A DNA stretch of 64,000 bases, taken from a virus. Below, piece after piece: positions 36,436-63,640 of this stretch. The DNA lies in the IMG/VR virus record IMGVR_UViG_3300025096_000004, positions 127,496 to 191,495 of that record; one strand, written 5' to 3'. The notes beneath the pieces were generated by a model, which did no database searches, was not told the DNA's origin, and worked only from the letters and a program-made list of their open reading frames with translations. The position numbers and the translations under genes were made by a program. Each line of letters starts with the position of its first letter. Within the stretch, counting starts at the first letter, position 1.

Positions 36436-36864
36436 ATGAGTGTAAATAAAGGACAGAAAGTCGCTGTTCACTATGTGGGAACATTAGATGATGGCACTGA
36501 GTTCGACAATTCTAGAACAAGAGGCGAACCCTTAAAATTTGAATTTGGAGCCGCCACCATCATGCCAGCATTTCAAGATGCTATTTCAGAAATGAATATC
36601 GGCGAGATTAAAAAAATAGAAGTTGAACCAGATCAAGCTTATGGGCCAATAAATCCCGATGCCTATACGGTTGTGCCGCTTCAAAATTTTAAAACGCCTG
36701 AAGATCTGGTTGTTGGATCTATTGTCCATGGCCAAAACGCATCAGGGCAACGCTTTGCTGCTAAAATCGATGAAATAAGTCAAGACAGCGTTAAGTTGGA
36801 TTTTAATCACCCGATGGCCGGCAAGAAGTTGAGTTTTGAAATTGAACTTATAAGCGCGAGTTAG
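36436..36864 (+). CDS. FKBP-type peptidyl-prolyl isomerase (SlyD/FkpB-like)
   Basis: VAVHYVGTLDDGTEFDNS, PDQAYG and DFNHPMAGKKLSFEIEL motifs. Confidence 0.95.
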   Translation: MSVNKGQKVAVHYVGTLDDGTEFDNSRTRGEPLKFEFGAATIMPAFQDAISEMNIGEIKKIEVEPDQAYGPINPDAYTVVPLQNFKTPEDLVVGSIVHGQNASGQRFAAKIDEISQDSVKLDFNHPMAGKKLSFEIELISAS

Positions 36865-36870
36865 GTCCAA

Positions 36871-36903
36871 AACCGCAGGGAGGCATGGGTTACAGATGCC
36901 TTA
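36871..36903 (+). ncRNA. conserved intergenic RNA motif copy 2
   Basis: AACCGCAGGGAGGCATGGGTTACAGATGCCTTA. Confidence 0.6.
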
Positions 36904-36925
36904 ATTTTAAATGAATGGAGCAAAC

Positions 36926-37165
36926 ATGGCTGGTAAAAAAAAGATTCCTGCCCAAAGGGCAATTGAGTTGTCTGCTATTATGGCAGGCTGCACTTTATTG
37001 GAAGTTAACGAGATGTTAAAAACAGCAGGATTTCCAGATATGAATGAGACTTCCTATACAATGGTTAAAAAACAATATATCCCCTTTTTAAGGTCTGCGG
37101 GAGATAAATATATCAAAGAGCATTTGTATAGCCCCCGCAGACTTAATCAATTAAAAGGAGAATAA
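36926..37165 (+). CDS. hypothetical protein
   Basis: ATG 36926 preceded by GGAG. Confidence 0.6.
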   Translation: MAGKKKIPAQRAIELSAIMAGCTLLEVNEMLKTAGFPDMNETSYTMVKKQYIPFLRSAGDKYIKEHLYSPRRLNQLKGE

Positions 37166-37168
37166 AAA

Positions 37169-37489
37169 ATGATTATTAATCTAAACGATGAAACATTTGA
37201 AGAATCAACTTCATCGGGCATCACTTTAGTTGACTTTTATGCAGATTGGTGTCAACCGTGCATAAGAATGATGCCAAAAGTCGAATCAGTAGCCTCTAAG
37301 CTTGGCGAAGATATAACCGTTGCAAAAGTTAATGTTGATGAAGCTCGAAATACTGCTGCCAAATTTGGTGTGCGAAGTATTCCAACTTTTGCTCTAATTA
37401 AAGATGGAAAGGTTCTTCGTATCTCTGCTGGTTCCAAGAGCGAACAAGATTTACTTTTGTTTGCTGAATCTTACAACAGAGGTGTATAA
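37169..37489 (+). CDS. trxA: thioredoxin
   Basis: VDFYADWCQPC and FGVRSIPT motifs. Confidence 0.95.
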   Translation: MIINLNDETFEESTSSGITLVDFYADWCQPCIRMMPKVESVASKLGEDITVAKVNVDEARNTAAKFGVRSIPTFALIKDGKVLRISAGSKSEQDLLLFAESYNRGV

Positions 37490-38608
37490 TTGGGAAAGGT
37501 AGTACAAATGAAGAAAAAACCGGGAAAAATGGATCTTGAAGCAATCAAAAAGCGAATCAATAAAACGACTGGCATGAATGTTGCTCACGATCTAACGAAA
37601 GATAATCCCACTGAAGTTAAACAGTGGATTCCGACTGGCTCCCGTTGGTTGGATTCGATTATCTGTAGGGGCAAGATGGCTGGCATCCCCGTTGGTAAAA
37701 TAACAGAAATAGCTGGTCTGCCAGCTACAGGCAAGTCTTTTATGGCTGCGCAGGTAGCAGGTAATGCACAAAAAATGGATATGCAAGTAGTCTATTTTGA
37801 TTCTGAATCTTCACTCGATCCAGCTTTTTTGAGAAGAGCCGGCTGTGAATTGAGCACACTAATGTATGTTCAGGCCGTTTCGGTTGAGAAAGTTTTGGAA
37901 ACAATTGAGGATTTGATGTCAGCAAGCTCAGAAACACAATGGTTGTTTATCTGGGATTCCATTGCAAATACAGCATGCGAAACAGATATTGAAGGCGACT
38001 TCAATCCCCTGTCAAGTATGGCAGTCAAGGCACGGACCATGGGTAAAGCTTTTCGAAAGTTAACTATTCCTTTGGCCAATCAACAATCAACGCTAATTTT
38101 AATTAATCAGTTGAAAACCAATATTACGAGAAGTATCGCAGAGGCTATGACCACCCCCTTTGTAGCCCCCGGCGGCAAAGCAATTGAATATAATTGCTCT
38201 CTCAGGGTTTGGCTTACTAAACGGAAAGCTAAAAATGCATTCACTACGGATAATAGTGGATTTCGAATTGGCTCTGAAGTTAAAGTTAAATTAGAGAAAT
38301 CTCGTTTTGGTACTGAAGGCCGCAGAGCAACTTTTCAAATTCTCTGGGGCTCTGACGTCGGAATTCAAGATGAAGAAAGCTGGTTTACAGCATTGAAATT
38401 GTCTGGAACCGATAAGTTAAAACAGGCCGGCGGTTGGTATACTCTGATTGACAAAAAGGGCTATGAACATAAGTTCCAAGTCTCTAAGTGGGTGGAAAAG
38501 CTAAAAGACAAGAATTTCCGCCAATTGGTATATGATTTGATGGATGAGGTTATCATTCATCGCTTTGACAAAACGGCAAATGAGATAGATTTGGGCGACG
38601 AAGAATAA
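37490..38608 (+). CDS. recA: RecA/UvsX recombinase
   Basis: IPTGS..LD, Walker A GLPATGKS, FDSE, IWDS, LINQL and PGGKA motifs. Confidence 0.9.
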   Translation: MGKVVQMKKKPGKMDLEAIKKRINKTTGMNVAHDLTKDNPTEVKQWIPTGSRWLDSIICRGKMAGIPVGKITEIAGLPATGKSFMAAQVAGNAQKMDMQVVYFDSESSLDPAFLRRAGCELSTLMYVQAVSVEKVLETIEDLMSASSETQWLFIWDSIANTACETDIEGDFNPLSSMAVKARTMGKAFRKLTIPLANQQSTLILINQLKTNITRSIAEAMTTPFVAPGGKAIEYNCSLRVWLTKRKAKNAFTTDNSGFRIGSEVKVKLEKSRFGTEGRRATFQILWGSDVGIQDEESWFTALKLSGTDKLKQAGGWYTLIDKKGYEHKFQVSKWVEKLKDKNFRQLVYDLMDEVIIHRFDKTANEIDLGDEE

Positions 38609-38620
38609 AAATAAAATTAC

Positions 38621-38649
38621 TTGACAAACCACTTCCTCCGTGTTATATT
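38621..38649 (+). promoter_or_regulatory. sigma70-type promoter
   Basis: TTGACA-17-TATATT. Confidence 0.85.
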
Positions 38650-38668
38650 ATAGCATGGAGGTTTTTTT

Positions 38669-39667
38669 ATGGAGGAAAAGATGAAAAAGGTTATTATAAT
38701 TGATGCACTTAATCTGTTTATTAGAAATTATGTTGTGAATCCCACAATGGACAGAAAGGGCATTCCCATCGGCGGCTGCATTGGATTTCTTAAATCAATG
38801 CAGAAAATTACAAGAATACTCCGACCTGACGAGATTATAGTTTGTTGGGACGGCATCGGTGGATCTCAAAGAAAGAAAGCAAAAAATAAAGACTATAAGG
38901 CCGGAAGAAAGCCTCTTCGGTTTAACAGACGAATGATTGAGCTTGACCCAGCCTCTCAGGAGCAAAATAGAATTTATCAACAAATTCGCCTTTATGAATA
39001 TCTTAACGAAATGCCAGTGATACAAGTATCGTTGGATGGAATAGAGGCAGATGACTTAATAGGACACATAGTACACCAAGATTACTATTCTGGTTGGGAA
39101 AAGGTCATTGTTTCAAGTGATAAAGATTTTTTTCAATTGGCTTCTGATGAAACAAGTGTATATCGACCCATTCAAGATACATTTGTTACGATTGAATCGC
39201 TTTTGGACAAGGACAGGATACATCCCAACAATTATGCACTTGCGAGGGCGTTGGTGGGCGACAAATCCGATAACTTGCCGGGAGTTCCGAGAGTTGGACT
39301 GAAAACGGTGGCAAAGTTGTTCAACTTTCTGTTGGAGTCAAAAAAATACACTGTATTCGATATTATTGAAAATTGCCGGAAACAGGATAAAATCACCGCC
39401 GCCCATAGAAATATTATAGACAACAATCAGTTGGTTTTTGAAAATTATGATATGATGCAGTTATATGATCCAATAATATCTTACACGAACAAACAATCGA
39501 TTGACTATCAAATTCAAAATTTTGAATTTGATTTTGCAAAAATTAATGTTACAAAGATGCTTTTTGAAGATGGCCAAGGTTCTTTAAATTTCAATGAGTT
39601 ATACACATATTTCAGAAGCTTTTCTGCATTAAACATTCATGAAAAAAAAATAAAAAATAGTATTTGA
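38669..39667 (+). CDS. 5'-3' exonuclease / flap endonuclease (T4 RNase H-like)
   Basis: IIDALN, YKAGR, EADDLIG, SSDKDFFQL and GDKSDNLPGV motifs. Confidence 0.95.
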   Translation: MEEKMKKVIIIDALNLFIRNYVVNPTMDRKGIPIGGCIGFLKSMQKITRILRPDEIIVCWDGIGGSQRKKAKNKDYKAGRKPLRFNRRMIELDPASQEQNRIYQQIRLYEYLNEMPVIQVSLDGIEADDLIGHIVHQDYYSGWEKVIVSSDKDFFQLASDETSVYRPIQDTFVTIESLLDKDRIHPNNYALARALVGDKSDNLPGVPRVGLKTVAKLFNFLLESKKYTVFDIIENCRKQDKITAAHRNIIDNNQLVFENYDMMQLYDPIISYTNKQSIDYQIQNFEFDFAKINVTKMLFEDGQGSLNFNELYTYFRSFSALNIHEKKIKNSI

Positions 39668-39692
39668 CAATGTTCTGTCAACGTGTTATATA
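39664..39692 (+). promoter_or_regulatory. sigma70-type promoter
   Basis: TTGACA-17-TATATA. Confidence 0.7.
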
Positions 39693-39717
39693 ATTATATT
39701 AGGTTTTGGAGGAAACT

Positions 39718-41073: not shown

Positions 41074-41082
41074 GAGAACATT

Positions 41083-43056
41083 GTGGTGAAACTAGCAGAC
41101 ATTAGTGTGAGAAAGTTTAAACTATCGGATCAATTTATTAACCAATATAGAGAAAAGACCGTTCCGTGGGGACCAGTCGGATATATTACATTTAAAAGAA
41201 CCTATGCAAGGCGTTTGAGTGAGTTTGATCCCAACGCTACAGGCACAGAAGAGTGGTATCAAACATGTCGCAGAGTAATTGAGGGCATGTTTGATATTCA
41301 AAAGCGCCATGTTGTGGCCACAGGTCTCGAATGGAATGATGCCAAAGCCCAAAGAACAGCAAAAGAAGCTTATGATAGGCTGTTTACTCTCAAGTGGACA
41401 CCTCCCGGCAGAGGATTGTGGATGATGGGTACAAAGTTTATTTATGAGCGCACAGGCGCAGGACTTTTTAATTGTGCATTCCGCTCTACCAAAGATCTTG
41501 GCTCCAAAGGCGGCTATTTATTCTCTTGGATGATGGATGCTTTAATGGTCGGAATTGGTGTTGGGTTTGATACTCTTGCCGCCGGTACTTTCACGGTCAA
41601 AGAGCCTCAGTGGACCAACGACATTCACATGATTGAGGACTCTCGCGAGGGCTGGGTCAACTCTGTCCACCTGATATTAGATGGCTATTTCTTGGGCAAG
41701 AAAGTGCCCCAGTTCGATTACTCCTTGATCCGTGGTATCGGAGAGCCCATCAAGGGCTTTGGTGGCACCGCAAGCGGAGCAGGTCCCTTAATTGAGCTAC
41801 ACAAGAATCTTAAAGAGCTATATGTGAACAAGGCCGGAGAAGAGATAACATCGGTTGATATTGTCGACACAGAAAATCTTATCGGACGGTGCGTCGTCGC
41901 AGGCAATGTCCGCCGTTCCGCCGCACTCGCCCTCGGCCAAGCCGAGGATAAAAGTTATTTAACAATGAAGAATGACCAAGAAAAACTCTATCACCATCGA
42001 TGGGGCTCCAACAACTCATTTGAGGCTAAAGTTGGAATGGACTATACTTGGCATGCCGAACAAAGTCAACAAAATGGTGAGCCGGGCTACATTTGGCTTG
42101 ACAATGCAAGATACTATGGTAGGATGAAGGATGGCATTAGATATGATGATACAAAGGTGATGGGATTTAATCCCTGTGTCGAGCAACAACTTGAAGACGG
42201 AGAATTATGTTGTCTTGTTGAGACATTCCCCGCAAAGCACGACACCTATGAAGACTATCTTAGAACCTTGAAGATCGCTTATCTGTATGGCAAGACAGTT
42301 ACCCTGATTAATACCCATTGGCCTGAGACTAATGCCATCATGTTAAAAAATAGAAGAATCGGCCTATCTCAATCTGGTGTGGTCCAAGCGTTTAATAAGT
42401 TTGGCAGACGACAAGTCTATGAGTGGTGTGACAATGCTTACGATGAAGTTCAGGCAATGGACATTGAATATTCAGATTGGCTTTGTATACCCCGTTCTGT
42501 TCGTATGACATCGATAAAGCCTTCTGGAACTGTATCTTTGTTAAATGGTTCAACTCCCGGCATACATTTTCCCGAGGATGAATACTATATTCGACGGATC
42601 CGCTTTGCCACAACATCCGATTTACTTCCAGCACTTAAGTCCGCTGGCTATAAGATAGAAGAAGATGCTTATTCTCCGAATACAATGTGTGTTGAGTTTC
42701 CTGTTTACGAGCCTCATTTCACAAAAGGAAAGCGCGATGTTTCTATGTGGGAGCAATTGGAGATAGCAGCCCAGTATCAGCACTTTTGGGCCGACAATAG
42801 TGTGTCCATTACAGTCACGTTCAAACCATCCGAAGCGCCTCAGTTGAAAGATGCACTTGAGATGTACGAAACCCGCCTCAAGGCTGTTTCTTTTTTGAAA
42901 TATGAAGAAACTGGCTACAAACAGGCTCCTTATGAGCCAATTACAAAAAAACAATATGAAGAGATGATCTCGAAGGTTGTCCCAGTTCAGAGAATAAACA
43001 CTGAACAAGCCGGAGCCGGGTCTAAATTTTGTACAAACGATACATGCACAATTTAA
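41083..43056 (+). CDS. nrdJ: class II (adenosylcobalamin-dependent) ribonucleotide reductase, monomeric RTPR type
   Basis: PPGRGLW, FNCAF, GNVRRSA, NPCVEQ, ELCCLVE, TSIKPSGTVS and a C-terminal CxxxxC. Confidence 0.95.
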   Translation: MVKLADISVRKFKLSDQFINQYREKTVPWGPVGYITFKRTYARRLSEFDPNATGTEEWYQTCRRVIEGMFDIQKRHVVATGLEWNDAKAQRTAKEAYDRLFTLKWTPPGRGLWMMGTKFIYERTGAGLFNCAFRSTKDLGSKGGYLFSWMMDALMVGIGVGFDTLAAGTFTVKEPQWTNDIHMIEDSREGWVNSVHLILDGYFLGKKVPQFDYSLIRGIGEPIKGFGGTASGAGPLIELHKNLKELYVNKAGEEITSVDIVDTENLIGRCVVAGNVRRSAALALGQAEDKSYLTMKNDQEKLYHHRWGSNNSFEAKVGMDYTWHAEQSQQNGEPGYIWLDNARYYGRMKDGIRYDDTKVMGFNPCVEQQLEDGELCCLVETFPAKHDTYEDYLRTLKIAYLYGKTVTLINTHWPETNAIMLKNRRIGLSQSGVVQAFNKFGRRQVYEWCDNAYDEVQAMDIEYSDWLCIPRSVRMTSIKPSGTVSLLNGSTPGIHFPEDEYYIRRIRFATTSDLLPALKSAGYKIEEDAYSPNTMCVEFPVYEPHFTKGKRDVSMWEQLEIAAQYQHFWADNSVSITVTFKPSEAPQLKDALEMYETRLKAVSFLKYEETGYKQAPYEPITKKQYEEMISKVVPVQRINTEQAGAGSKFCTNDTCTI

Positions 43057-43066
43057 AGGAGAAAAA

Positions 43067-43351
43067 ATGCATTTTTTACCATTTAATCGTCACTTAGTTG
43101 TCGATTTGATTGAACAAGAAGAAAAAATAGATGAAAGTATTATAGTGCTGCCATCTGATTATGAAAAGCCTGTGTCACCCTATGCCAAGGCTATACTTAT
43201 AGAAGCGTCCAGAGATTCAAAATTTTATGACTCTTTGCAAACCAATGATACAATATTGGTTGAAAGGAGAATGTTACATAAAATTGAAATTGATGACTCT
43301 TCTTTCTATTTAATATTAGAAAATTATATTTTTGGGAGAATTGATACATGA
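43067..43351 (+). CDS. groES: co-chaperonin GroES-like
   Basis: FLPFNRHLVV, mobile loop IIVLP, DTILV and LILENYIFG align by eye to the GroES pattern. Confidence 0.75.
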   Translation: MHFLPFNRHLVVDLIEQEEKIDESIIVLPSDYEKPVSPYAKAILIEASRDSKFYDSLQTNDTILVERRMLHKIEIDDSSFYLILENYIFGRIDT

Positions 43352-43941: not shown

Positions 43942-43949
43942 GGTGATTA

Positions 43950-47543: not shown

Positions 47544-47556
47544 AATACTTACTTAT

Positions 47557-51878: not shown

Positions 51879-52460
51879 ATGAATTTTATACCTGATAGAA
51901 AAATATATAAAAATATCATTTCTGCCGAAGAAGCTGAAATTTTGATAGAGTTTGGTGAATTTTGGATACATCCCCTTTTTCTTTTCCGTGAACCCCGGCG
52001 ACCTGACAAACCTACGTTCTTCCCCTCTGGCGATCATCAAAACTCATTTTATCTTGAGGTGGTTCCTGTTGTCATAAGAATCGTGAAAAAAATAGAAAAC
52101 AGTCTAGGTGTAAGAGTGGTAAGCGAGCCAACGGAGGATGCATGCCCAAGAGGTATACGGCTGACATCTCATTGGGCAGTTATGAATTATAATGAGGGCA
52201 GCATTGTTCACTATGACACTGGGAGCGCTCAGCACATGCCTTGGTGCAACTTAAGTTGTTCAATATTATTATCAAACCCCGATTCTTTTACTGGCGGTGA
52301 TGTTCATTTTGATGATGGAACTCTAAAGCCCACTGAGCACCATTTGAATGCATTGGTTTACAGCAGCATTGAGGCCGAGGCCCTGAACAAGCATTGGGTT
52401 GACGCTACCGATGGGGCAGACAGATGGATGATGTTGATGTTTTTTAAAGCCATTTTTTAA
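51879..52460 (+). CDS. 2OG-Fe(II) oxygenase
   Basis: HYD, LSCSILLS..DSFTGG, distal H(WV) and R. Confidence 0.8.
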   Translation: MNFIPDRKIYKNIISAEEAEILIEFGEFWIHPLFLFREPRRPDKPTFFPSGDHQNSFYLEVVPVVIRIVKKIENSLGVRVVSEPTEDACPRGIRLTSHWAVMNYNEGSIVHYDTGSAQHMPWCNLSCSILLSNPDSFTGGDVHFDDGTLKPTEHHLNALVYSSIEAEALNKHWVDATDGADRWMMLMFFKAIF

Positions 52461-52480
52461 AAAATAATTTCAAAATTAAC

Positions 52481-52508
52481 TTGACAAATCTATCAAACGT
52501 GTTATATT
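52481..52508 (+). promoter_or_regulatory. sigma70-type promoter
   Basis: TTGACA-16-TATATT. Confidence 0.8.
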
Positions 52509-52531
52509 ATATATGTTCAACGGAGGAATAT

Positions 52532-52816
52532 ATGAACGAACAAACAAGTAAAATTTTGGAACTTGCGGATTCTCTGAATCCAGAGAAGAACAAGGAAACA
52601 CACATGAAGGAATACATCACTTCAGTTAAAGCTTTAGAAGATGCCATGGAGCCCTTTAAGGAGCAGAAGCGTGACCTTCGAAAAGAATATGACGATAATG
52701 GCTGGCTTAACAAAGAAGAACAGCGTATGGTCACCCGGGCATATCGACTGCTCAAAGACGACATTGACATCGGAGAGCTTATCGATATGTACGATGCATT
52801 GCGAGGTTCTAAATGA
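52532..52816 (+). CDS. small helical dsDNA-binding protein (T4 DsbA/GapR-like)
   Basis: LEDAMEPFKEQKRDLRKEY...RAYRLLK...ELIDMYDAL pattern. Confidence 0.5.
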   Translation: MNEQTSKILELADSLNPEKNKETHMKEYITSVKALEDAMEPFKEQKRDLRKEYDDNGWLNKEEQRMVTRAYRLLKDDIDIGELIDMYDALRGSK

Positions 52817-53172
52817 TATTGGGATTATTGCTTGCCTGTGGGGAACAGGTCACAAGCCCCGAGCCCCTCTATTTGACAGAGGAGTATTATGACTGGACAT
52901 GTCATGACTACGAAGACAGGTCAGAAATTATAGTTAGCACCAACACATGTGAAGATCACGAAACAGGCCTTTATTGGCTTATTGCCGAGTCACACCTTGT
53001 TGCTGGCGGGGGTTTTAAACGAAAGTTAGACAAAGCCCCCAATTGGGAAATTGACTGTCTGTATGAGACAAAGCTTCCACTTCTTGATGATTATTGTATT
53101 GAAGTGGGGGGTGTCACATTGACAGCCTACGTCGAACCAGCCACTTGGTCTGGTGCATTATTTGGAGATTAA
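52813..53172 (+). CDS. putative lipoprotein
   Basis: Short signal MILGLLLA-C with a lipobox-like cysteine. Confidence 0.55.
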   Translation: MILGLLLACGEQVTSPEPLYLTEEYYDWTCHDYEDRSEIIVSTNTCEDHETGLYWLIAESHLVAGGGFKRKLDKAPNWEIDCLYETKLPLLDDYCIEVGGVTLTAYVEPATWSGALFGD

Positions 53173-53173
53173 A

Positions 53174-53608
53174 ATGGAAGTTAAAATTAAAAAACTGCAT
53201 CCAGATGCTATAATACCATCATATGCCAAGCATGGAGATGCTGGTATGGATATGTATGCCGCTTCTCAAGGGACAGCAGACAAGTATGGCAACATGGTAT
53301 ATCACACAGGCATTGCAATGGAGATTCCTTCTGGCTATGTTGGATTGATATATCCAAGATCATCTGTGTCAAAAACACCCCACTCACTAAGAAATCATGT
53401 TGGCGTTGTTGATAGTGGCTATCGCGGAGAAATTATATTTAAGTTTGGCTGGGTCGAATCTAGCTCACTTGATACACAAGTTTACGATGCTGGTGATCGC
53501 ATCGGACAAATTATTATTATGCCCTACCCAAGAGTGGAGTTTGTCGAGGTTGATCGATTATCCGATTCCGACCGAGGTGACGGCGGGTTTGGGAGTACAG
53601 GCCAATGA
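53174..53608 (+). CDS. dut: dUTPase (trimeric)
   Basis: AGMD, PRSS, GVVDSGYRGE, RIGQ and RGDGGFGSTG motifs. Confidence 0.97.
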   Translation: MEVKIKKLHPDAIIPSYAKHGDAGMDMYAASQGTADKYGNMVYHTGIAMEIPSGYVGLIYPRSSVSKTPHSLRNHVGVVDSGYRGEIIFKFGWVESSSLDTQVYDAGDRIGQIIIMPYPRVEFVEVDRLSDSDRGDGGFGSTGQ

Positions 53609-53874
53609 ATAGGCAACAAAGAAGAGAGCATGCCAGACAGCAAAAAAAACTAAAGGAAAAGCCAGAGCTTGAGCAAAAGTTGGGGTTGTTTGATAAAATG
53701 CCAGACCATTGTCTTGCTTGTCTTAAAGATTTTGACAAGAAAGATAAGACAATGGTCACTTCTTGGTCTGTAGTGGTTAGAGAGAAGGAAGGAATTGTCC
53801 GCCTCTATTGTCCAGACTGTTGGCAGAAGGCCAAAGATGTCGTGGAGGTATTGAAAAATGAGAATACTGATTGA
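53605..53874 (+). CDS. zinc-finger protein
   Basis: CLAC...YCPDC. Confidence 0.65.
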   Translation: MNRQQRREHARQQKKLKEKPELEQKLGLFDKMPDHCLACLKDFDKKDKTMVTSWSVVVREKEGIVRLYCPDCWQKAKDVVEVLKNENTD

Positions 53875-54019: not shown

Positions 54020-54204
54020 TTGAAGACGCACCAAAACACAACCCACAAAAGAAAGTGTGGGAGAATGCAGGTATTTTTGATACCTATCACGAGGCCAGAG
54101 CAAAGGCTGAATTGATGAAGTCGGAGACCAAGATCCGTCGTTGTGGTCCCGCTGGCACAAAATTTAAAATTAAACGAGTTGTGAAGATGCTGGGGGATGG
54201 ATGA
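54016..54204 (+). CDS. small hypothetical protein
   Basis: GGAGG RBS and ATGA overlap. Confidence 0.6.
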   Translation: MIEDAPKHNPQKKVWENAGIFDTYHEARAKAELMKSETKIRRCGPAGTKFKIKRVVKMLGDG

Positions 54205-55205
54205 GATCAACAGTTACGTTTGATGATGTTCTTATAGTCCCTCAGTATTCGGAGATAGTTAGTAGAAAATCAATTGATATTGCCAGCATCCTATCTCCCA
54301 ATGTGGTTTTAGATTTGCCTATCTTTGGAGCGCCAATGGATACTGTTACGGATCCCTTTATGCTAAACACAATGAACAGCCACGGCGCTTGTGGGATAAT
54401 GCATAGATATAACTCAATCTATGAGCAAGTATCATCGATAAAGAGAGTTACTGGAACAAAAGCAGCAGCCATTGGTGTGACTGGGGATTATCTAAATAGG
54501 GCAATCAAGCTGGTTGAGTCTGGCGTCGAGATCATTTGTGTCGATGTGGCTCATGGTCACCATGCACTTGTCCGTCATGCGATAAAGACACTGAGAAACA
54601 CATTGGGGTATGATTTACACATCATGGCTGGCAACGTGGCAACCCTTGAAGCCTTTAATGATTTGTCTGACTGGGGCGCCAATTCTATTAGAGTTGGAAT
54701 CGGCGGAGGGTCAATATGTTCTACCCGAATCCAAACTGGCCATGGCATCCCCACTTTGCAGTCTATTATTGACTGTTCTTTATCAGATAGACCAGCGAAA
54801 TTAATAGCCGACGGTGGCCTTAAAAGTTCTGGGGACATGGTAAAGGCCATCGCCGCCGGCGCTGATTTTGTTATGGCTGGCTCCTTGTTGGCTGGAACGC
54901 TTGAGTCTCCCGGAGAGACAACCTTGATCAATGGATCAACTTATAAAAAGTACCGTGGCATGGCTTCCATTGAAGCCCAAATCGATTGGAGGGGGCACTC
55001 TTCTTCTGAAGAAGGTGTTTCACATATGATGCCTTATAAGGGGTCTGTAAAAAAGATTTTAAAAGAGCTAGAAGCTGGAATTAGAAGTGGCTTTTCATAT
55101 AGCGGCGCACTAAATATTGTAGACTTTCAAGCGAAAGCTAAATTTGTAAAACAAAGCTCGGCTGGCTTATATGAAAGCCGAACCCACATCAAGGATCGCT
55201 TTTAA
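54201..55205 (+). CDS. IMP dehydrogenase / GMP reductase family (no CBS domains)
   Basis: TFDDVLIVP, VDVAHGH, AGNVAT, RVGIGGGSICSTR, IADGG and YRGMAS motifs. Confidence 0.95.
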   Translation: MRSTVTFDDVLIVPQYSEIVSRKSIDIASILSPNVVLDLPIFGAPMDTVTDPFMLNTMNSHGACGIMHRYNSIYEQVSSIKRVTGTKAAAIGVTGDYLNRAIKLVESGVEIICVDVAHGHHALVRHAIKTLRNTLGYDLHIMAGNVATLEAFNDLSDWGANSIRVGIGGGSICSTRIQTGHGIPTLQSIIDCSLSDRPAKLIADGGLKSSGDMVKAIAAGADFVMAGSLLAGTLESPGETTLINGSTYKKYRGMASIEAQIDWRGHSSSEEGVSHMMPYKGSVKKILKELEAGIRSGFSYSGALNIVDFQAKAKFVKQSSAGLYESRTHIKDRF

Positions 55206-56169: not shown

Positions 56170-56205
56170 TAATTAAAAAAATAAAATTTGTTACACTAAA
56201 GAGAG

Positions 56206-56236
56206 TGAAAAAGGCAGGCCATGATCTGCCTTTTTT
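56206..56236. terminator. intrinsic terminator, possibly bidirectional
   Basis: AAAAAGGCAG-loop-CTGCCTTTTTT. Confidence 0.8.
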
Positions 56237-56250
56237 ATTATGGAGGAAAT

Positions 56251-56649
56251 ATGTTTTGGATGCAAATCTTTTTAGCCTTTACGGTCGGAATGATTGTATG
56301 TAAGTTGTTCGGCGGCCTTTTGTCCTTGGGTTATTCGGCTTTTTTGTTTCAAAAAGTGCATGACGATTCATTGAGAATCATGGGAACTATTTGTCAGGAT
56401 CTGTCTGAGGTACATCATTTAAAACTTTTGGAACTTCGAAGGATGGGAAAGCCGGAAGAAGAAATAGAGATCGCCCGAAATGTTTCTAATTATCATTTAA
56501 ACTCAATTCGAGCCACTATAGTTCGCAATTTCATATCGACTTTTCCCAAAGCCCAATCTCATATTTTAAGGTTTTCTGATTGGGAATCTGCGATGCAAGA
56601 ATTAGATAGACTAATTAAGAAAGAGAAACAAAATAAATTTAATAAATAA
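56251..56649 (+). CDS. membrane-anchored hypothetical protein
   Basis: GGAGG RBS; N-terminal hydrophobic segment. Confidence 0.6.
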   Translation: MFWMQIFLAFTVGMIVCKLFGGLLSLGYSAFLFQKVHDDSLRIMGTICQDLSEVHHLKLLELRRMGKPEEEIEIARNVSNYHLNSIRATIVRNFISTFPKAQSHILRFSDWESAMQELDRLIKKEKQNKFNK

Positions 56650-56658
56650 GAGGGCAAA

Positions 56659-57288
56659 ATGTCTAAAAAAATTAAACTGGAAACCGAAGAGGATTCCGCA
56701 AAAGAACAAGATCAGGACGCAGACGAATCGGCAGCAATCGCAGGTTTGCTTTCAAGCTTAGAAAGGCCTGACATGCGCAGCATGGCCTTGTTTGGAGAAA
56801 TCGATGAAGAAAAGGCCTCTGACATTTGTGTCGGCCTTCTTCTATTAAGTAAAAACAGTGATGAAGAGAAGCTTGGTCCCATTAACTTCTATATATCAAC
56901 TTATGGTGGCAATGCTGATGACATGTTTTCCATAATTGATATGATGGATATTGCAAAGCGAAATTGTGAAATCCGCACCTACGGCCTTGGAAAGGTTATG
57001 TCAGCAGGTGTCCTTTTGTTGGCCAATGGAACACCGGGCAGCCGCTATGTTGGCAAACATTGCCGGATTATGATTCATTCATGCAATGCAGGATCTGTTG
57101 GAGATATTCATAATTTAAAAAATGAAATGGCCGCAATACAACACCAGCAAGAACAATACATCAACGCGTTGGTAGAAGTATCATCACTCACCAAGAGGCA
57201 GTTGAACCGTCTTCTTGACAGAAAGGTTAATGTTTATTTAACAGCCACTGAGGCAATTGAGTATGGTATTGCTGATGAAATTATGTAG
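56659..57288 (+). CDS. clpP: ClpP-like protease subunit
   Basis: LFGEID, INFYISTYGG, GKVMSAG (Ser), RIMIH (His) and YLTA.EA.EYG.AD. Confidence 0.9.
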   Translation: MSKKIKLETEEDSAKEQDQDADESAAIAGLLSSLERPDMRSMALFGEIDEEKASDICVGLLLLSKNSDEEKLGPINFYISTYGGNADDMFSIIDMMDIAKRNCEIRTYGLGKVMSAGVLLLANGTPGSRYVGKHCRIMIHSCNAGSVGDIHNLKNEMAAIQHQQEQYINALVEVSSLTKRQLNRLLDRKVNVYLTATEAIEYGIADEIM

Positions 57289-57299
57289 GAGATAAATTA

Positions 57300-58220
57300 A
57301 TGGCAATTGATAGAGAATTTTACAACGAAGCCTCAGCCGCAAAGCTCGGCTGGGAACCCGAGTGGTTTGGTGTATCAACACACGACGACAGACTCACCAG
57401 AGCTATTCGCAAGTTTCAAAAAGACAACGAACTGACTGCCGATGGCCTCTGTGGCCCATCTACTTTTCGTAGAATCTGGACCCATCGAGAGTCAAATATA
57501 GATGACTATCGACAACCCTATGTTGTCGAGAAAGAAACCTCAGTCATTGTTCACAATGGCAAGTTCTTTCCAATTGAATGGCCTCGGGTTGTCCTGTGGT
57601 CAGAAAACCCATCCGGCCTCGATGCCAAAGAGGGAACCTATTCTTCTTATGCCGGCCACCCTGACAGGAAGCCCAGTTTCTTCGTTACACATTGGGACGT
57701 ATGTCTTAGCAGCAAGTCGTGCCAATCTGTGCTTGCGAAGCGAGGAATCAGCATCCACTACATGATTGATAATGATGGTACAATTTACCAAGCATTGGAC
57801 ACCCAACATGCCGCATGGCATGCCGGAGGGCGCAGGTGGAACCATAGCTCCATCGGGGTCGAAATAAGTAACGCATTTTCACTGAAGTACCAAAAAACAT
57901 ATATATCTCGGGGGTTCGGAGAGCGCCCAGTAGTCACAGATGCCCGTGTACATGGAACCAAATTAAAGCCGCACTTAGGCTTCTATCCGGTACAAATTGA
58001 AGCCTTGAAGGCATTGTATAAAGCCATTCACGGAGCTACGGGTATCCCGTTGGAAACCCCACTCGACAGCAATGGTGATATGTTAACGAAAGTGTCCTCA
58101 ACTGCGAAAGCAAACAAATTCAAGGGCTTCTTATCGCACTTCCATCTCACCAGAGGCAAGATCGATTGTGCAGGTCTTGACATCCAAAGGCTTTTAGAGG
58201 AGATCAAGAATGATCAATAA
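57300..58220 (+). CDS. endolysin: peptidoglycan-binding domain plus N-acetylmuramoyl-L-alanine amidase
   Basis: AIRKFQ...LTADGLCGPST (PG_binding_1); THWD, SIHYMID.DGTIYQ, AWHAG, SIGVE and SHFH...KIDC. Confidence 0.9.
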   Translation: MAIDREFYNEASAAKLGWEPEWFGVSTHDDRLTRAIRKFQKDNELTADGLCGPSTFRRIWTHRESNIDDYRQPYVVEKETSVIVHNGKFFPIEWPRVVLWSENPSGLDAKEGTYSSYAGHPDRKPSFFVTHWDVCLSSKSCQSVLAKRGISIHYMIDNDGTIYQALDTQHAAWHAGGRRWNHSSIGVEISNAFSLKYQKTYISRGFGERPVVTDARVHGTKLKPHLGFYPVQIEALKALYKAIHGATGIPLETPLDSNGDMLTKVSSTAKANKFKGFLSHFHLTRGKIDCAGLDIQRLLEEIKNDQ

Positions 58221-59232: not shown

Positions 59233-59240
59233 CTTTTTAC

Positions 59241-59268
59241 TTGACAAAACATCAAAATGTGTTATATT
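59241..59268 (+). promoter_or_regulatory. sigma70-type promoter
   Basis: TTGACA-16-TATATT before groEL. Confidence 0.85.
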
Positions 59269-59289
59269 ATATAAGAACATGGAGGATAA

Positions 59290-60858
59290 GTGAAACACTA
59301 TCAAAATGGACAAGAACTCAATGTAAAGATTTTAAGAGGCATTGATATTCTTGCAGACAATGTGGCATCCACACTTGGACCAAAAGGCCGCAATGTGATC
59401 CTATATCACAAAGAAGAAAACATTCCCGTTATTACCAAAGATGGTGTGACGGTAGCAAAGTTTGTCGAGCTTGAAGATCCCTTCGAGAATGTCGGAGCGC
59501 AGATCATCAAGCAAGCAGCAGCCAAGACGAACGAGACAGCAGGTGATGGAACAACCACCTCCACCGTATTGGCCCGAGGCATACTTAAAAAAGCACAAAA
59601 ATACCTTATGGCTGGGGTGTCGCCTATTGAGCTTAAGCGAGGTATTGATCTCGCAGTGGCTGCAATCTGTACCAATTTGAAGGAAATGGCAACCCCAATT
59701 CAATCAGAGGAAGATATAGCACACATTGCAACCATCTCGGCTAACAATGATAAAGTTATTGGTACACTGGTTGCAACAGCAGTTGATAGAGCGGGTAAGG
59801 ATGGCTCGGTGATAGTTGAAGAGGCCCGTTCACTTGAGACGAGCTTGGATCTTATTGAAGGATTTCGTTTCGACTCAGGCTATGCAGCTACTGCGTTCAT
59901 TACGAATGAGCGTAGTGGAACAGTTGAATATGAGACTCCGATGATTCTAGTGACGGACGAGAAGCTTGAACGTGTTGACCAAATTCTACCAGTCCTTGAA
60001 TTAGCATCCCGAGAAAATCGCCCTCTTCTGGTTATTGCGTCTGATATTGTGGACCAAGCCCTCGCCGCTCTTATTATGAATGCGGTTCGTGGAACGATGA
60101 AAGTGGCTGCAATTAAAGCTCCACGTTATGGCGAAGAAAGACGCTCAATAATGAAAGATCTCTGCCTTTCAACCGGAGCCACTATGATTACCCGAGAAAA
60201 CTCGTTAACCCTAAAAGATGTTAAATTAGCACACTTTGGAGGGTGTAAAAAGGTATCTGCGGATAAAGGCTGGACAACAATAGTTGGAGGTAAAGGAAAC
60301 TATGATGAGATCGATAAGAAGATTGAAGCACTTAAAACAGAAATTCAACAGACTGAATCACTCAAAGCTTGTGAAAGAATACAGGAACGGATTACAAGAC
60401 TTGCGTCTGGCATTGCTGTTATTCGTGTTGGCGCTGCTACTGACGTTGAAATGATTGAAAAAAAGCACCGCATCGATGATGCACTTGAAGCAGTCCGCTC
60501 AGCCCAAGAGGAAGGGATTGTCTCTGGAGGTGGTACTGCCCTACTCCGGGCCGTCCGTGATCTCATGGTCGAGACAGAGAATGAGGAACAAAATTTGGGC
60601 GTTAAGATAGTTTTCGAAGCCATCGAAGAGCCACTAAGACAAATGTGTCTTAATGCTGGAGAGTCCCCGGATATTATCGTTGACAAGGTAAAAAGCCTAG
60701 AGTTTGGCTGGGGTTACGATTTTGCGTCTGGTCAGGTCAAGGACCTATATCTAGCTGGGATTATCGATCCGGTCAAGGTTACACGATGTGCGCTGCAAAA
60801 TGCCGCCTCAGTGTCATCAACTTTAATCACGACTAACCATGCGATTGTTTGCCAGTAG
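59290..60858 (+). CDS. groEL: chaperonin GroEL (Cpn60)
   Basis: STLGPKGRNV, ITKDGVTVA, AGDGTTT, IDDAL and IIDPVKV; no GGM tail. Confidence 0.97.
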   Translation: MKHYQNGQELNVKILRGIDILADNVASTLGPKGRNVILYHKEENIPVITKDGVTVAKFVELEDPFENVGAQIIKQAAAKTNETAGDGTTTSTVLARGILKKAQKYLMAGVSPIELKRGIDLAVAAICTNLKEMATPIQSEEDIAHIATISANNDKVIGTLVATAVDRAGKDGSVIVEEARSLETSLDLIEGFRFDSGYAATAFITNERSGTVEYETPMILVTDEKLERVDQILPVLELASRENRPLLVIASDIVDQALAALIMNAVRGTMKVAAIKAPRYGEERRSIMKDLCLSTGATMITRENSLTLKDVKLAHFGGCKKVSADKGWTTIVGGKGNYDEIDKKIEALKTEIQQTESLKACERIQERITRLASGIAVIRVGAATDVEMIEKKHRIDDALEAVRSAQEEGIVSGGGTALLRAVRDLMVETENEEQNLGVKIVFEAIEEPLRQMCLNAGESPDIIVDKVKSLEFGWGYDFASGQVKDLYLAGIIDPVKVTRCALQNAASVSSTLITTNHAIVCQ

Positions 60859-60859
60859 C

Positions 60860-60867
60860 ACTATTTA
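60860..60867 (+). promoter_or_regulatory. putative late promoter motif
   Basis: ACTATTTA 8 nt before an SD-less ATG. Confidence 0.6.
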
Positions 60868-60875
60868 TTATTGCT

Positions 60876-61139
60876 ATGACCAATGACCACCATCAAGAAC
60901 TTAGAGAGATAATTTTAGACCTCAAGAACGATATTGAGCGCATGGCAGAACGTCAATCCGGCATGATCGACGACGTTAAAAAAATCAAAGAAGCAATATA
61001 TAATCCTGACCAAGGACTCTATGCAAGAATAAAGGCATTGGAACAATGGAAAGAGTCCTCTCAAAAGGTGACTTGGGTTATTATGACAACTGTTTTGGGT
61101 CTAGCAACAACAACTATTTACAAGTTTATCGTTGGATAA
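60876..61139 (+). CDS. coiled-coil plus C-terminal TM protein (holin/XhlA-like)
   Basis: Heptad-rich N-terminal part; WVIMTTVLGLATTTIYKFIVG hydrophobic end. Confidence 0.5.
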   Translation: MTNDHHQELREIILDLKNDIERMAERQSGMIDDVKKIKEAIYNPDQGLYARIKALEQWKESSQKVTWVIMTTVLGLATTTIYKFIVG

Positions 61140-61141
61140 AC

Positions 61142-61170
61142 TTGACAAACACTTATAAATGTGTTATATT
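61142..61170 (+). promoter_or_regulatory. sigma70-type promoter
   Basis: TTGACA-17-TATATT. Confidence 0.85.
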
Positions 61171-61196
61171 ATTATTACTTACACCTTGGAGGTTTT

Positions 61197-61589
61197 ATGA
61201 GAGTAAGAGTTACACACGGCATCGAACTGAGTCAGGTGCCAAACAAAATTAAAGAAATGGTACAAGAGATTGTTAATGAGCTTGGCAATAGTCTTGAAAG
61301 CTTGGAAGCTTCAGCCATGTTAAGCAACGATCTTGCTTATTTGCCCGCTGTAGTGGATATTCTTGATAGGGTTCGAAAGAATCTAACGGAAGTAGATCAA
61401 GCTCTAGCTGATTCTCACGCCATATCAAGCGGCCTTGTTAGGCATTTGAAATCGCTTAACGCGCCTTCTGAAAGTGCCACCAACGTTGCGCCTTCTGAGG
61501 ATGAACTCAAAGCTATGAGTGAAATGTTGGCAGACGTAGGAGACAAGATTGATGCAATCAACCAAGAATCTGATGTTCATCAAGGGTGA
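61197..61589 (+). CDS. hypothetical helical protein
   Basis: ATG 61197 with GGAGG RBS. Confidence 0.65.
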   Translation: MRVRVTHGIELSQVPNKIKEMVQEIVNELGNSLESLEASAMLSNDLAYLPAVVDILDRVRKNLTEVDQALADSHAISSGLVRHLKSLNAPSESATNVAPSEDELKAMSEMLADVGDKIDAINQESDVHQG

Positions 61590-61782
61590 TCTTGTGCATG
61601 TGCCACAATCGGCCATACTGTATGGATCATCATCACCCAACTTAAAAATATATGTCATCAAGAAGCCAATGTTGGCTATTTTCATGGATTATAAAAACGA
61701 CGGAATGTCTGAAATAGTAATGGACGGACAAAAGTGGTTGGTCAAAAATAAAGAAATATTTTCAAACAAGGAAACATTATGA
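61573..61782 (+). CDS. small SH3/KOW-like hypothetical protein
   Basis: MFIKGDLVHVP pattern. Confidence 0.5.
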   Translation: MFIKGDLVHVPQSAILYGSSSPNLKIYVIKKPMLAIFMDYKNDGMSEIVMDGQKWLVKNKEIFSNKETL

Positions 61783-62060
61783 TGTTAGTAGAACTCGTGC
61801 AGATTAAAAAAAGACAAGGGCGACACTATCTAAGTAAGATTTATTTAAATCCTAGGCACATAGTATATATAAGTGAAGATGTGGGAACCAAGAACACAAT
61901 TAGTGAAAGCAACGATCTTGGATTGGTTCCAGAGACATCCTTCAGCATTATCCGCTTAAATGATAATGGCCTGCACAGTGAGATTAGTGTTGTTGGCGAT
62001 CCTCAAATGATTGAGGGCAAGATATTTTTTAAAAAAAAGCGAAATATTCTAAGGGGGTGA
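61779..62060 (+). CDS. hypothetical protein (FlbD-like pattern possible)
   Basis: IYLNPRHIVYISE...SIIRL. Confidence 0.45.
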   Translation: MMLVELVQIKKRQGRHYLSKIYLNPRHIVYISEDVGTKNTISESNDLGLVPETSFSIIRLNDNGLHSEISVVGDPQMIEGKIFFKKKRNILRG

Positions 62061-62061
62061 C

Positions 62062-62310
62062 ATGAGATATTTTGAAATTTATGCTTGGACGGATTGTCCT
62101 TATTGTAGTGATGCCAAAGCCCTTCTGATTGAGAATGGTGAGCAATTTTTATTTTGCTGCATTGACCAGTCAGAGATGTTGCTTCAACATATCAAAACAA
62201 AGTGGGGCTGGCAAACAGTTCCTTTGATCTTAGAGAAAAACACCACCAATGAAGATGTTATATTTGTTGGTGGTTTTACTGATTTGCAAAAGCATTTGGA
62301 GAACAAATGA
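62062..62310 (+). CDS. glutaredoxin
   Basis: CPYC, TVPLI and VGGFTDL motifs. Confidence 0.92.
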   Translation: MRYFEIYAWTDCPYCSDAKALLIENGEQFLFCCIDQSEMLLQHIKTKWGWQTVPLILEKNTTNEDVIFVGGFTDLQKHLENK

Positions 62311-62645
62311 GAGTTAATAAACCATGGGGTCATGAGATCCGCTGGGCGCTGAACGAGAAGTATATTGGAAAGCTGCTTAGAATCGAACCGGGACAAAAAC
62401 TATCAAGACAATATCATCAAGAGAAAGATGAGACTATTTATGTTCTTGATGGCGTTCTTGTTCTTGAGATTGGCTCGAAAGAAGACATGATTAGAATCAT
62501 AATGCACCCGGGCTCATATCGTCGTATAGAGCCGGGAACTATCCACCGTTTCGCCGCACCATCCGACGGATGTACATTGATTGAGGTTTCAACACCAGAA
62601 ATTGATGATGTGGTTAGACTTGAAGATGACTATGGTCGAGTATAA
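62307..62645 (+). CDS. cupin (mannose-6-phosphate isomerase-like)
   Basis: KPWG, SRQYHQEKDETIYV, PGTIHRF and EVSTPE motifs. Confidence 0.88.
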   Translation: MRVNKPWGHEIRWALNEKYIGKLLRIEPGQKLSRQYHQEKDETIYVLDGVLVLEIGSKEDMIRIIMHPGSYRRIEPGTIHRFAAPSDGCTLIEVSTPEIDDVVRLEDDYGRV

Positions 62646-62654
62646 TAATTAACT

Positions 62655-62662
62655 ACTATTTA
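62655..62662 (+). promoter_or_regulatory. putative late promoter motif
   Basis: ACTATTTA 5 nt before an SD-less ATG. Confidence 0.6.
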
Positions 62663-62667
62663 GTATT

Positions 62668-63261
62668 ATGAAACTTATAATGGAAAACTGGAGGAGCTTC
62701 TTAAAAGAAGATAGTACTCCGCTTGTTGTTATTTATTTTGGTGGTTTCAAGCCACCACACAAGGGTCATCTCGCTGTTGTTGAGGAGTACCTCTCAATGC
62801 CCGAGGTTGAACGTGTTTATATTCTGTTCGGCACATCCCCACGCCATTCAGCCGATCGATCTCTCTATCTTGATGAGACTCATTCGCAAGCTGTTTGGCA
62901 TTTATTTTTGGATTCTCTATCTTCGGATAAAGTAACAGTGCTTCCACCAACATCGGGAAATACTATGGTCGCAGCAGCGGAACTCGCATGGCTACCAGAG
63001 CTATCTGGAAAGCGAATAACTGCTGGCTATGGAGCTAAAGAGCCGAAGTATGGCCAATCGTTTATCCGTGTTGTTGAGTCTCTTGCTGAAGAAAAGGGAC
63101 AACCTCTGGCGATCCCCGTGGCAACACCAAGCTCGATAGATGTTCCGGGGGTATCATCGACTAAAATACGGGAGGCTCTCGTTCAGAAGGACATGAAATA
63201 TTTAGAACAAGCTGTCCCCGCTGGTGTTTCTGTCGAAGAATATATAAATATTTTAACTTAA
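62668..63261 (+). CDS. HxGH-class (cytidyltransferase-like) nucleotidyltransferase with MKLIMENWRSFLKE leader
   Basis: FGGFKPPHKGH and VSSTKIRE motifs. Confidence 0.85.
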   Translation: MKLIMENWRSFLKEDSTPLVVIYFGGFKPPHKGHLAVVEEYLSMPEVERVYILFGTSPRHSADRSLYLDETHSQAVWHLFLDSLSSDKVTVLPPTSGNTMVAAAELAWLPELSGKRITAGYGAKEPKYGQSFIRVVESLAEEKGQPLAIPVATPSSIDVPGVSSTKIREALVQKDMKYLEQAVPAGVSVEEYINILT

Positions 63262-63264
63262 TTC

Positions 63265-63293
63265 TTGACAAGATAGAAGAAACAGGTTATACT
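63265..63293 (+). promoter_or_regulatory. sigma70-type promoter for tmRNA
   Basis: TTGACA-17-TATACT. Confidence 0.8.
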
Positions 63294-63305
63294 ATATATT
63301 ATAGA

Positions 63306-63640
63306 GGGGGCGTAATGGTTTCGACAGGGTAGAACTCGGAGGACGAGTGCAGGTAGGTAAGATACAACCTTAAAAGTTCAATTGCAATAACTGCAAACAA
63401 TAATTATTATTTCGAACAAGCCTTAGCTGCTTAATCGGGTGGCCGTCCCGAGCCATCTAACCAAGAGGGACAAAACAACAGACAAGTTGTAAAAATCAAA
63501 CAACTCGGTGCAATAGGACAGTAAGCATCGTTTCACAACTGTCTACCTTTGTTAGTTTGTGATAGTAAACTAACTAAACCTGTGAATGACTCTATTCTAA
63601 GCTACTGTGGACGAGGGTTCGACTCCCTCCGCCTCCACCA
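63306..63640 (+). ncRNA. ssrA: tmRNA (one-piece)
   Basis: 5' GGGGGCGTAATGGTTTCGAC; 3' GAGGG-TTCGACT-CCCTC-CGCCTCC-A-CCA; G3-U acceptor pair; tag ORF 63393..63434 ANNNYYFEQALAA*. Confidence 0.97.

Follow-up and report, generated by a model that had tools for sequence, protein, structure and literature searches.

Chaperonin, ClpP-like, redoxin and tmRNA genes on a marine T4-like phage genome: probably separate auxiliary gene classes and not one toolkit

Introduction

In phage T4, the phage co-chaperonin gp31 acts with the host GroEL to fold the capsid protein gp23, and the T4 proteins NrdC and NrdH, like thioredoxin and glutaredoxin, are reductants of ribonucleotide reductase (RNR). Genes of these kinds, together with a ClpP-like gene, an FKBP peptidyl-prolyl isomerase gene and a transfer-messenger RNA (tmRNA), are carried by the stretch considered here, the last 64 kb of the 191,495-bp IMG/VR virus record IMGVR_UViG_3300025096_000004 (64,000 nucleotides (nt), hereafter the window; positions are those of the window unless marked as genome positions). 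Phage tmRNAs have been described in cluster C mycobacteriophages (Bxz1 and others) and Bacillus phage G (PMC4131195), as well as in huge phages, some of which also encode SmpB (PMC7162821). They occur in 2.3% of phage genomes, including those of marine pelagimyophages and the OM43 phage Melnitz, and Buchholz et al. reported that just 2.5% of one-piece phage tmRNAs are marine (PMC9004378). Glutaredoxin and ClpP were found by Nishimura et al. (2017) in T4-like Tara Oceans viral genomes of about 180 kb, and were interpreted in terms of Fe-S-protein metabolism (PMC5332604). Outside phages, the ClpP1 of Listeria, with a Ser98-His123-Asn172 triad, forms an inactive heptamer without AAA+ docking and becomes active in the ClpP1/ClpP2 complex (PMC9257651).

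An original prediction had read the seven elements of the window as a near-complete, phage-encoded proteostasis and ribosome-rescue toolkit, in which folding, rescue, tagging and degradation are supplied together, perhaps in order to sustain translation when host RNAs are cleaved by defence nucleases. The best explanation is now a different one: the genome probably brings together several independent and already known classes of phage auxiliary genes, and not one toolkit. As part of the same reading, and held with the same confidence, the source is a complete lytic marine myovirus of the Far-T4 type, uncultured, in which gp23-, gp21-, gp32- and UvsX-type genes are combined with a DnaE replicase.

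Seven elements and their inheritance

All seven elements are found exactly where they had been placed by the original prediction, using Pfam and NCBIfam models, a family profile and predicted fold for the GroES-like protein, and ARAGORN with Rfam for the tmRNA. Their presence in relatives was scored in five large genomes taken over their full length (163-191 kb) and in a sixth that was surveyed, the GroES-like gene and SmpB being scored in the five.

36436 to 36864, plus strand: SlyD/FkpB-like FKBP peptidyl-prolyl isomerase (FKBP_C, E 6e-20); in 1 of 6 relatives
37169 to 37489, plus strand: thioredoxin (Trx) with a CQPC site (Pfam E 3e-25; TIGR01068 90.8 bits, cut-off 96.8); family in 3 of 6 relatives
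43067 to 43351, plus strand: GroES/Cpn10-family co-chaperonin (family profile and predicted fold); directly after RNR in 4 of 5 relatives
56659 to 57288, plus strand: ClpP-family protein with a Ser115-His140-Asn191 triad (Pfam CLP_protease, 113 bits); in 6 of 6 relatives
59290 to 60858, plus strand: GroEL, a group I chaperonin of 522 residues (TIGR02348 593 bits, cut-off 582; PHROG groEL, E 2e-144); in 6 of 6 relatives
62062 to 62310, plus strand: glutaredoxin (Grx) with a CPYC site (Pfam E 2e-10); family in 3 of 6 relatives
63306 to 63640, plus strand: one-piece tmRNA encoding the tag ANNNYYFEQALAA (ARAGORN and Rfam RF00023); in 4 of 6 relatives

Three of these genes (ClpP-like, GroEL and GroES-like) belong to the core of the lineage and four (tmRNA, Trx, Grx and FKBP) are sporadic; the full set of seven was seen in this genome only. 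The pattern of FKBP, Trx and tmRNA is that of independently gained cassettes and not of a co-inherited module, and the gap between gp32 and UvsX, which here holds FKBP, an unknown open reading frame and Trx, is empty in some relatives. The division into three core and four sporadic genes offers a clean comparative frame for an abundant uncultured marine T4-like lineage. The elements are indeed interleaved with phage genes, namely gp32, UvsX, RNase H, DnaB, RNR, ThyX, DnaE and the endolysin, and phages that carry one or another of the parts are known from earlier work for every part, both points in keeping with what had been predicted. Their placement within 27 kb is, by our reasoning, no tighter than a T4-like modular layout predicts, and all non-structural auxiliary genes of the phage can be assigned, by the same reasoning, to its replication/auxiliary module.

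The elements also fall into different transcription units, as judged from promoter motifs obtained by intergenic word enrichment in this genome alone. A sigma70-type promoter, TTGACA-N-(T)GTTATAYT, whose -10 word is about 10-fold enriched in intergenic DNA, precedes three units, the RNase H-DnaB-RNR-GroES-ThyX operon (38621), DnaE (48392) and the operon that runs from GroEL to Grx and a cupin gene; the tmRNA promoter is a close variant of it.

59241 to 59268, plus strand: sigma70-type promoter TTGACA-N-TGTTATATT of the GroEL operon
63265 to 63293, plus strand: sigma70-type promoter of the tmRNA, TTGACA-17 nt-TATACT, whose end lies 12 nt upstream of the RNA 5' end

Another motif, ACTA[AT]TTA, is found before 23 genes, 14 of which belong to the structural module, and lies 49 nt upstream of the ClpP-like gene. 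These motifs would place the chaperonin and the tmRNA in the early or middle phase and the ClpP-like gene in the late phase, a timing that must be taken as tentative because the motifs come from one genome and do not recur in relatives. Among the public runs listed as containing the stretch, none was of RNA.

The absence of SmpB and ClpX, which had been noted for the window, extends to the whole genome. SmpB was found neither there nor in any of the five relatives scored, and no AAA_2 or ClpX zinc-finger gene, hence no ClpX/ClpA/ClpC-type unfoldase, is present in the genome, so that the partners for trans-translation and for ClpP would have to come from the host. The whole genome was also searched, with negative results, for HSP70 (DnaK), HSP20, peptide deformylase and RF-1/ArfB, as well as for RtcB and RNA_ligase (Rnl2-type), and it contains a single tRNA, tRNA-Gly(GCC), at genome positions 1458-1533. 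A hidden Clp unfoldase was considered and rejected, since the sole AAA-type matches are a MoxR-like AAA_5 protein with a DUF2201/VWA partner and a PIN-PhoH protein.

The chaperonin pair

The GroEL match to TIGR02348 is at equivalog level and spans residues 8-520; the protein has the GDGTTT ATP-binding motif and lacks a C-terminal GGM tail. It is 58-72% identical to the GroEL of the relatives and at most 46% identical to any GroEL in the phage collection. The GroES-like protein, taken alone, scores below the cut-offs (Pfam 19.5 versus 21.1 bits; NCBIfam 22 versus 109), and its assignment is rescued by the family profile and the Cpn10 fold: the family counts 126 homologues from marine sources, Pfam Cpn10 recognises many of them, the 126-member profile matches Cpn11/GroES structures (E 3e-7), and the top Foldseek matches of the AlphaFold2 model (mean predicted local distance difference test, pLDDT, of 81) are all Cpn10, GroES or gp31, with TM-scores of 0.6-0.68. 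A conserved IVLP lies in the low-pLDDT mobile-loop region (residues ~21-30), in which V27-L28-P29 are invariant or nearly so. The gene starts 10 nt past the RNR stop codon, in a co-transcribed unit with RNR and ThyX. As a separate observation, when the profile is compared with PDB sequences, the Chlamydomonas Cpn11 comes first, from entry 7EKQ, which is titled as a ClpP complex; this hints that co-chaperonins can cap ClpP, and is probably a database coincidence.

A candidate client is encoded in the head module:

7009 to 8940, plus strand: gp23-type major capsid protein of 643 residues (Pfam Gp23, E 2e-74; PHROG major head protein)

By analogy with the T4 gp31/GroEL-gp23 system, the phage GroEL and its divergent GroES would most likely fold this unusually large capsid protein, together with other phage proteins. 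Whether a phage-owned GroEL/GroES pair serves the folding of an oversized gp23-type capsid protein is one of the questions that the genome raises.

Redoxins, ribonucleotide reductase and FKBP

Both redoxins score below NCBIfam equivalog cut-offs and have the thioredoxin fold and a CxxC site. Trx adjoins UvsX among the replication genes, and a class II RNR follows 3.6 kb downstream; all relatives encode class II RNRs. Grx lies in the GroEL operon, being syntenic in 19 of 46 related loci.

41083 to 43056, plus strand: class II adenosylcobalamin-dependent RNR of the RTPR type (TIGR02505 409 bits, cut-off 340; Pfam RNR_Alpha and RNR-II insertion domain)

The canonical RTPR subtype (this genome and relative G002) co-occurs with Trx, and a divergent subtype (G001, G003 and G004) with Grx. 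It is most likely, by analogy with NrdC and NrdH in T4, that Trx and Grx would reduce the phage class II RNR.

FKBP is an accessory cassette. Its FKBP_C match covers residues 3-138 for a 94-position model, implying an insert of about 45 residues (a putative SlyD/FkpB-like insert-in-flap), and its best NCBIfam match, PRK15095, reaches 82 bits against a cut-off of 125. The gene is bracketed by intergenic elements of about 36 nt with a hairpin AGGCAT...ATGCCT (36382-36417 and 36872-36906; 90-95% identical), which look like a cassette boundary or terminator.

tmRNA

The tmRNA matches RF00023 over its full length (model positions 1-374; 114 bits versus a gathering score of 47), and a G3:U70 pair, the resume codon GCA and an encoded CCA end can be read from it. 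As far as its sequence tells, it has every feature needed for alanine charging and for an LAA-ending tag. It would be transcribed by the host RNA polymerase, charged by the host alanyl-tRNA synthetase and delivered by the host SmpB, and may thereby top up ribosome rescue, the LAA-ending degron being read by host proteases.

Two types of tmRNA, about 56% identical to each other, occur in the lineage. The first comprises the present one, that of G002 (tag ANNNNHYDEVRLAA; 90% identical to the present tmRNA) and that of G006 (tag ANNNYYYEEVRLAA), and the second those of G001 and G003, with the tag ANDNVEFDYALAA; all tags in the lineage end in LAA. The ARAGORN tag call for G003 was a mis-call, its tag being equal by alignment to that of G001. 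The idea that the tag evolves faster than the rest of the molecule was dropped as inconsistent, the identity being 76% in the tag versus 91% elsewhere between the present genome and G002, and 98% versus 73% between G001 and G003. The tmRNAs lie with tRNAs in a rearranged hypervariable region; here the tRNA-Gly(GCC) is about 1.6 kb downstream of the tmRNA after joining the contig ends, and the same arrangement is found in G006. A scan of bacterial genomes for the T-arm/acceptor signature gave matches in many phyla, and local BLAST found no similarity outside the last ~35 nt; no host could be named. No glutamine riboswitch was detected with Rfam.

Two side observations touch this region. Between Grx and the tmRNA (62307-63261) lie a cupin gene and a gene with a weak nicotinamide-nucleotide adenylyltransferase (NMNAT) likeness, which, like the GMP reductase/IMPDH-family gene mentioned below, are auxiliary genes of nucleotide and cofactor metabolism standing among the seven elements. 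Moreover, over 63344-64000, the summed contig depth of three marine metagenomes rises about 7-fold inside the tmRNA, where many contigs break; the rise is attributed to related tmRNAs of other phages or bacteria that share the conserved parts.

The ClpP-like protein and its neighbourhood

The ClpP-like protein, a single copy in this genome, remains below all NCBIfam cut-offs (best 105.7 versus 228 bits; TIGR00493 74.6 versus 308.6), and the ClpP-related head-maturation model NF045542 gives 52.8 bits against a cut-off of 120, about half the score of the best cellular ClpP model. Its AlphaFold2 model has a ClpP/crotonase-type fold and matches cellular ClpPs with TM-scores of 0.7-0.8 (E 2e-12). 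Homologues of the protein number in the thousands. Among 41 of them, Ser115 and His140 are invariant; at the third triad position 36 have Asn, 4 have Asp and one truncated sequence has a gap, and in the 33 closest homologues the Asn is invariant. The protein thus departs from the canonical Ser-His-Asp triad of ClpP (MEROPS S14). The N-terminal ~39 residues are acidic and show no conservation, disorder is modelled for residues 1-24, and the Pfam match begins at model position 16, leaving the canonical N-terminal loop unmatched. Besides the Asn-type orthologue, relative G005 has an extra ClpP paralogue (L244:1357-1995) with a canonical Ser-His-Asp triad, and the two may be regarded from their sequences as a phage-encoded ClpP1/ClpP2-like pair.

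The gene forms a tight unit with two neighbours and an unknown gene:

56221 to 56649, plus strand: small protein with a hydrophobic N-terminus and two putative transmembrane segments (sequence inspection; no family match), possibly a holin-like partner of the endolysin
57300 to 58220, plus strand: N-acetylmuramoyl-L-alanine amidase endolysin with a peptidoglycan-binding domain (Amidase_2, E 2e-17; PG_binding_1; PHROG endolysin)

The amidase follows the ClpP-like gene in 22 of the 46 related loci. Further upstream, a GMP reductase/IMPDH-family gene (54201-55205) is kept in most relatives.

By analogy with Listeria ClpP1, the ClpP-like protein, which has no cognate unfoldase, would probably need a partner ring for activity; since the genome has one ClpP copy, any such ring would be the host ClpP, and in some relatives it could be a second phage ClpP with Asp.

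Genome context and phage origin

The head module comprises TerL, portal, a gp21-type prohead protease (Peptidase_S77, E 9e-36), which sits between the portal and capsid genes, and the gp23-type capsid protein; the replication module comprises gp32, UvsX, RNase H, DnaB, class II RNR, ThyX and the DnaE polymerase. By capsid protein the nearest cultured phages are the Far-T4 myoviruses Flavobacterium phage immuto (44%), Microcystis phage Mel-JY01 and Rhodothermus RM378. Megablast found no near-identical cultured phage at the DNA level, and DnaE is at most 30% identical to that of any cultured phage. No integrase was found in the whole genome.

The final 284 nt of the contig match genome nt 2-276 with 87% identity and identical edges, and an open reading frame runs across the junction:

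63657 to 64000, plus strand: 5' part of an open reading frame that continues at the contig start (wrap-around; end match 87%)

The overlap (window 63716-64000 with genome 1-276) shows that the assembly wrapped through a microdiverse gene of a closed or permuted genome; the IMG/VR label 'linear' masks this closure. The ClpP-like protein, searched against IMG/VR, gave 46 related loci, more than 30 of which share the order DnaE...GMP reductase - small gene - ClpP-like - (amidase) - GroEL -...- Grx. In addition, contigs assembled independently in two marine metagenome runs, which belong to different studies, span both ClpP-like-amidase-GroEL and GroEL-Grx-NMNAT-tmRNA 5' end with 0-1 mismatches; one of the two runs may be that of the source sample.

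Several further genes were noted. At genome positions 18338-20650, outside the window, a MoxR-type AAA_5 ATPase is followed by a DUF2201 protein with a putative metallopeptidase N-domain and a VWA-like domain; the two, conserved in 4 of 5 relatives, are another chaperone-like pair. A PIN-PhoH fusion (PhoH2-like RNA helicase/RNase) at genome positions 52264-53613 is present in 5 of 5 relatives with 55-60% identity. Within the window, at 33713-35513, a 438-residue protein with a weak GHKL/HSP90-like ATPase match (HATPase_c_3) and a 167-residue partner stand behind a gap of 321 nt, in which a strong promoter of the sigma70 type lies; the pair is found in this genome alone among the relatives and may represent accessory defence or counter-defence genes.

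Alternative explanations

That GroEL, ClpP, Trx and tmRNA are host DNA misjoined to a phage contig, or that the tmRNA marks a prophage-host junction, had to be considered, as tmRNA genes are classic prophage integration sites, the present one lies 360 nt from the contig end, and the depth rise inside it amounts to repeat-like behaviour in the assembly graph. Such an artefact is nevertheless extremely improbable: the synteny of the ClpP-GroEL block in more than 30 independent viral contigs, the contigs that bridge it in two runs and the wrapped ends, which place phage genes on both sides of the tmRNA, establish that the seven genes are phage-borne and not contamination, the outcome by which the original prediction would have fallen. 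Same-type tmRNAs are also flanked by phage genes in G002 and G006, the phage proteins are merely 25-46% identical to their cellular homologues, and the missing integrase together with the contig wrap-around rules out a prophage junction or integration. The reading of the seven elements as an integrated toolkit, in which folding by FKBP and GroEL/ES, redox repair by Trx and Grx, ribosome rescue and tagging by the tmRNA, and degradation by ClpP form one co-adapted pathway that sustains translation and protein quality when host machinery is shut off or hit by defence nucleases, is judged unlikely, pathway and purpose being taken jointly. It draws on the occurrence of every part on one genome and on the common LAA ending of the tags, and some further observations weigh against the preferred reading of separate gene classes: the ClpP-like gene and GroEL stay close to each other throughout the lineage, at a distance of 1-3 kb and in synteny, and could be functionally linked; one promoter type serves GroES, GroEL with Grx, and the tmRNA, which makes some co-expression possible; the exact motifs are absent upstream of the ClpP, GroEL and DnaE orthologues in relatives, a result that is uninformative, the DnaE word being unshared too; and the covariation of Trx and Grx with RNR covers seven genomes only. 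Yet the parts probably do not form a single system: they differ in inheritance (tmRNA, Trx, Grx and FKBP being sporadic, and ClpP and GroEL universal), in transcription units and in their best local explanations (Trx/Grx with RNR; ClpP-like with the endolysin). Trx and GroES belong to RNR/replication operons, and the ClpP-like protein, with Asn for the catalytic Asp and without a canonical N-terminal loop, sits in an endolysin unit under a different promoter motif. With SmpB, Clp unfoldases, DnaK, Hsp20, deformylase and ArfB all absent, 'near-complete' was an overstatement, and the supply of all arms together finds no support in genes of different inheritance, divided among transcription units with two promoter types; nor does the defence-nuclease motive, as RNA-repair genes of the RtcB or Rnl2 type, which would hint at anticodon nucleases, were not found. 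Of the tagging and degradation scheme, a complete tmRNA with an LAA-ending tag stands, whereas the Asn at the catalytic Asp position (Asn191) makes it doubtful that the ClpP-like protein serves to degrade ssrA-tagged proteins. That a large phage carries chaperone, protease and tmRNA genes together is not in itself proof of a pathway.

For the ClpP-like protein itself, a late morphogenesis- or lysis-associated protease may be imagined, which might serve as a further enzyme of virion processing or might control when lysis occurs, with holin, antiholin or endolysin as its targets. The co-transcribed amidase, which follows the gene in nearly half of the loci, the small membrane protein upstream, the motif shared with structural-module genes, and the best PHROG matches of the protein, which are head maturation proteases, all speak for such a role. 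It is made distinctly unlikely by the dedicated gp21-type prohead protease in the head module, 62 kb away, which rules out the ClpP-like protein as the prohead protease, by the twofold better scores of cellular ClpP models, by top structural matches that are all cellular ClpPs, and by the half of the relatives in which no endolysin stands beside the gene; nor is the late motif conserved upstream of its orthologues. A longer shot is that the Asn-type protein acts as a regulatory ring that joins the host ClpP (or an Asp-type paralogue as in G005) and rewires the host ClpXP late in infection, so that LAA tags from the phage tmRNA feed a hybrid protease; if true, this would be a virus-controlled tag-and-degrade circuit assembled from host parts. 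Under the preferred reading of separate auxiliary gene classes, the most interesting leftover is this lineage-core Asn-type ClpP, and the question it raises is what role a conserved Ser-His-Asn ClpP plays in a virus that brings no unfoldase. This protein, and the chaperonin with its oversized gp23-type capsid protein, are the points that deserve experiment.

Comparison with known systems

The redoxins resemble T4 NrdC and NrdH-type proteins in being small CxxC redoxins located by nucleotide-metabolism genes of a T4-like phage; the difference is that the RNR is here of class II (RTPR type) and not of class I. The elements flanking FKBP are reminiscent of the PeSL elements found in T4-type phages. 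In the case of the tmRNA, the known phage examples are matched by a complete ssrA in a large lytic phage, located beside tRNAs, with an early-type promoter and, as in most of them, without SmpB (PMC4131195, PMC9004378, PMC7162821), and the present case stands apart as a one-piece tmRNA in a marine phage and by the two types, about 56% identical, within one lineage. The likeness of the ClpP-like protein to Listeria monocytogenes ClpP1 lies in the ClpP fold, the Asn in place of the catalytic Asp, the low similarity to standard ClpPs, the lack of an evident chaperone-docking N-terminus and, in relative G005, the pairing of an Asn-type with an Asp-type protein; unlike ClpP1, it is phage-encoded and lineage-core, has no second ClpP in its genome and is extended at the N-terminus by about 39 acidic, disordered residues.

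The chaperonin pair has its closest counterparts in T4 and in Flavobacterium phage vB_FspM_immuto (NC_055915). As with gp31, a Cpn10-family co-chaperonin is supplied by the phage, its model also matches gp31 itself (PDB 1G31), and a gp23-type capsid protein is the candidate client. Immuto, whose capsid protein is 44% identical, has annotated GroES and GroEL, which are adjacent in that phage, whereas here the two genes are 16 kb apart and in different operons. Relative to both phages, the present GroES is very divergent, falling below the Pfam cut-off when taken alone, and the present GroEL is without the GGM tail; relative to T4, the present phage encodes GroEL as well as GroES.

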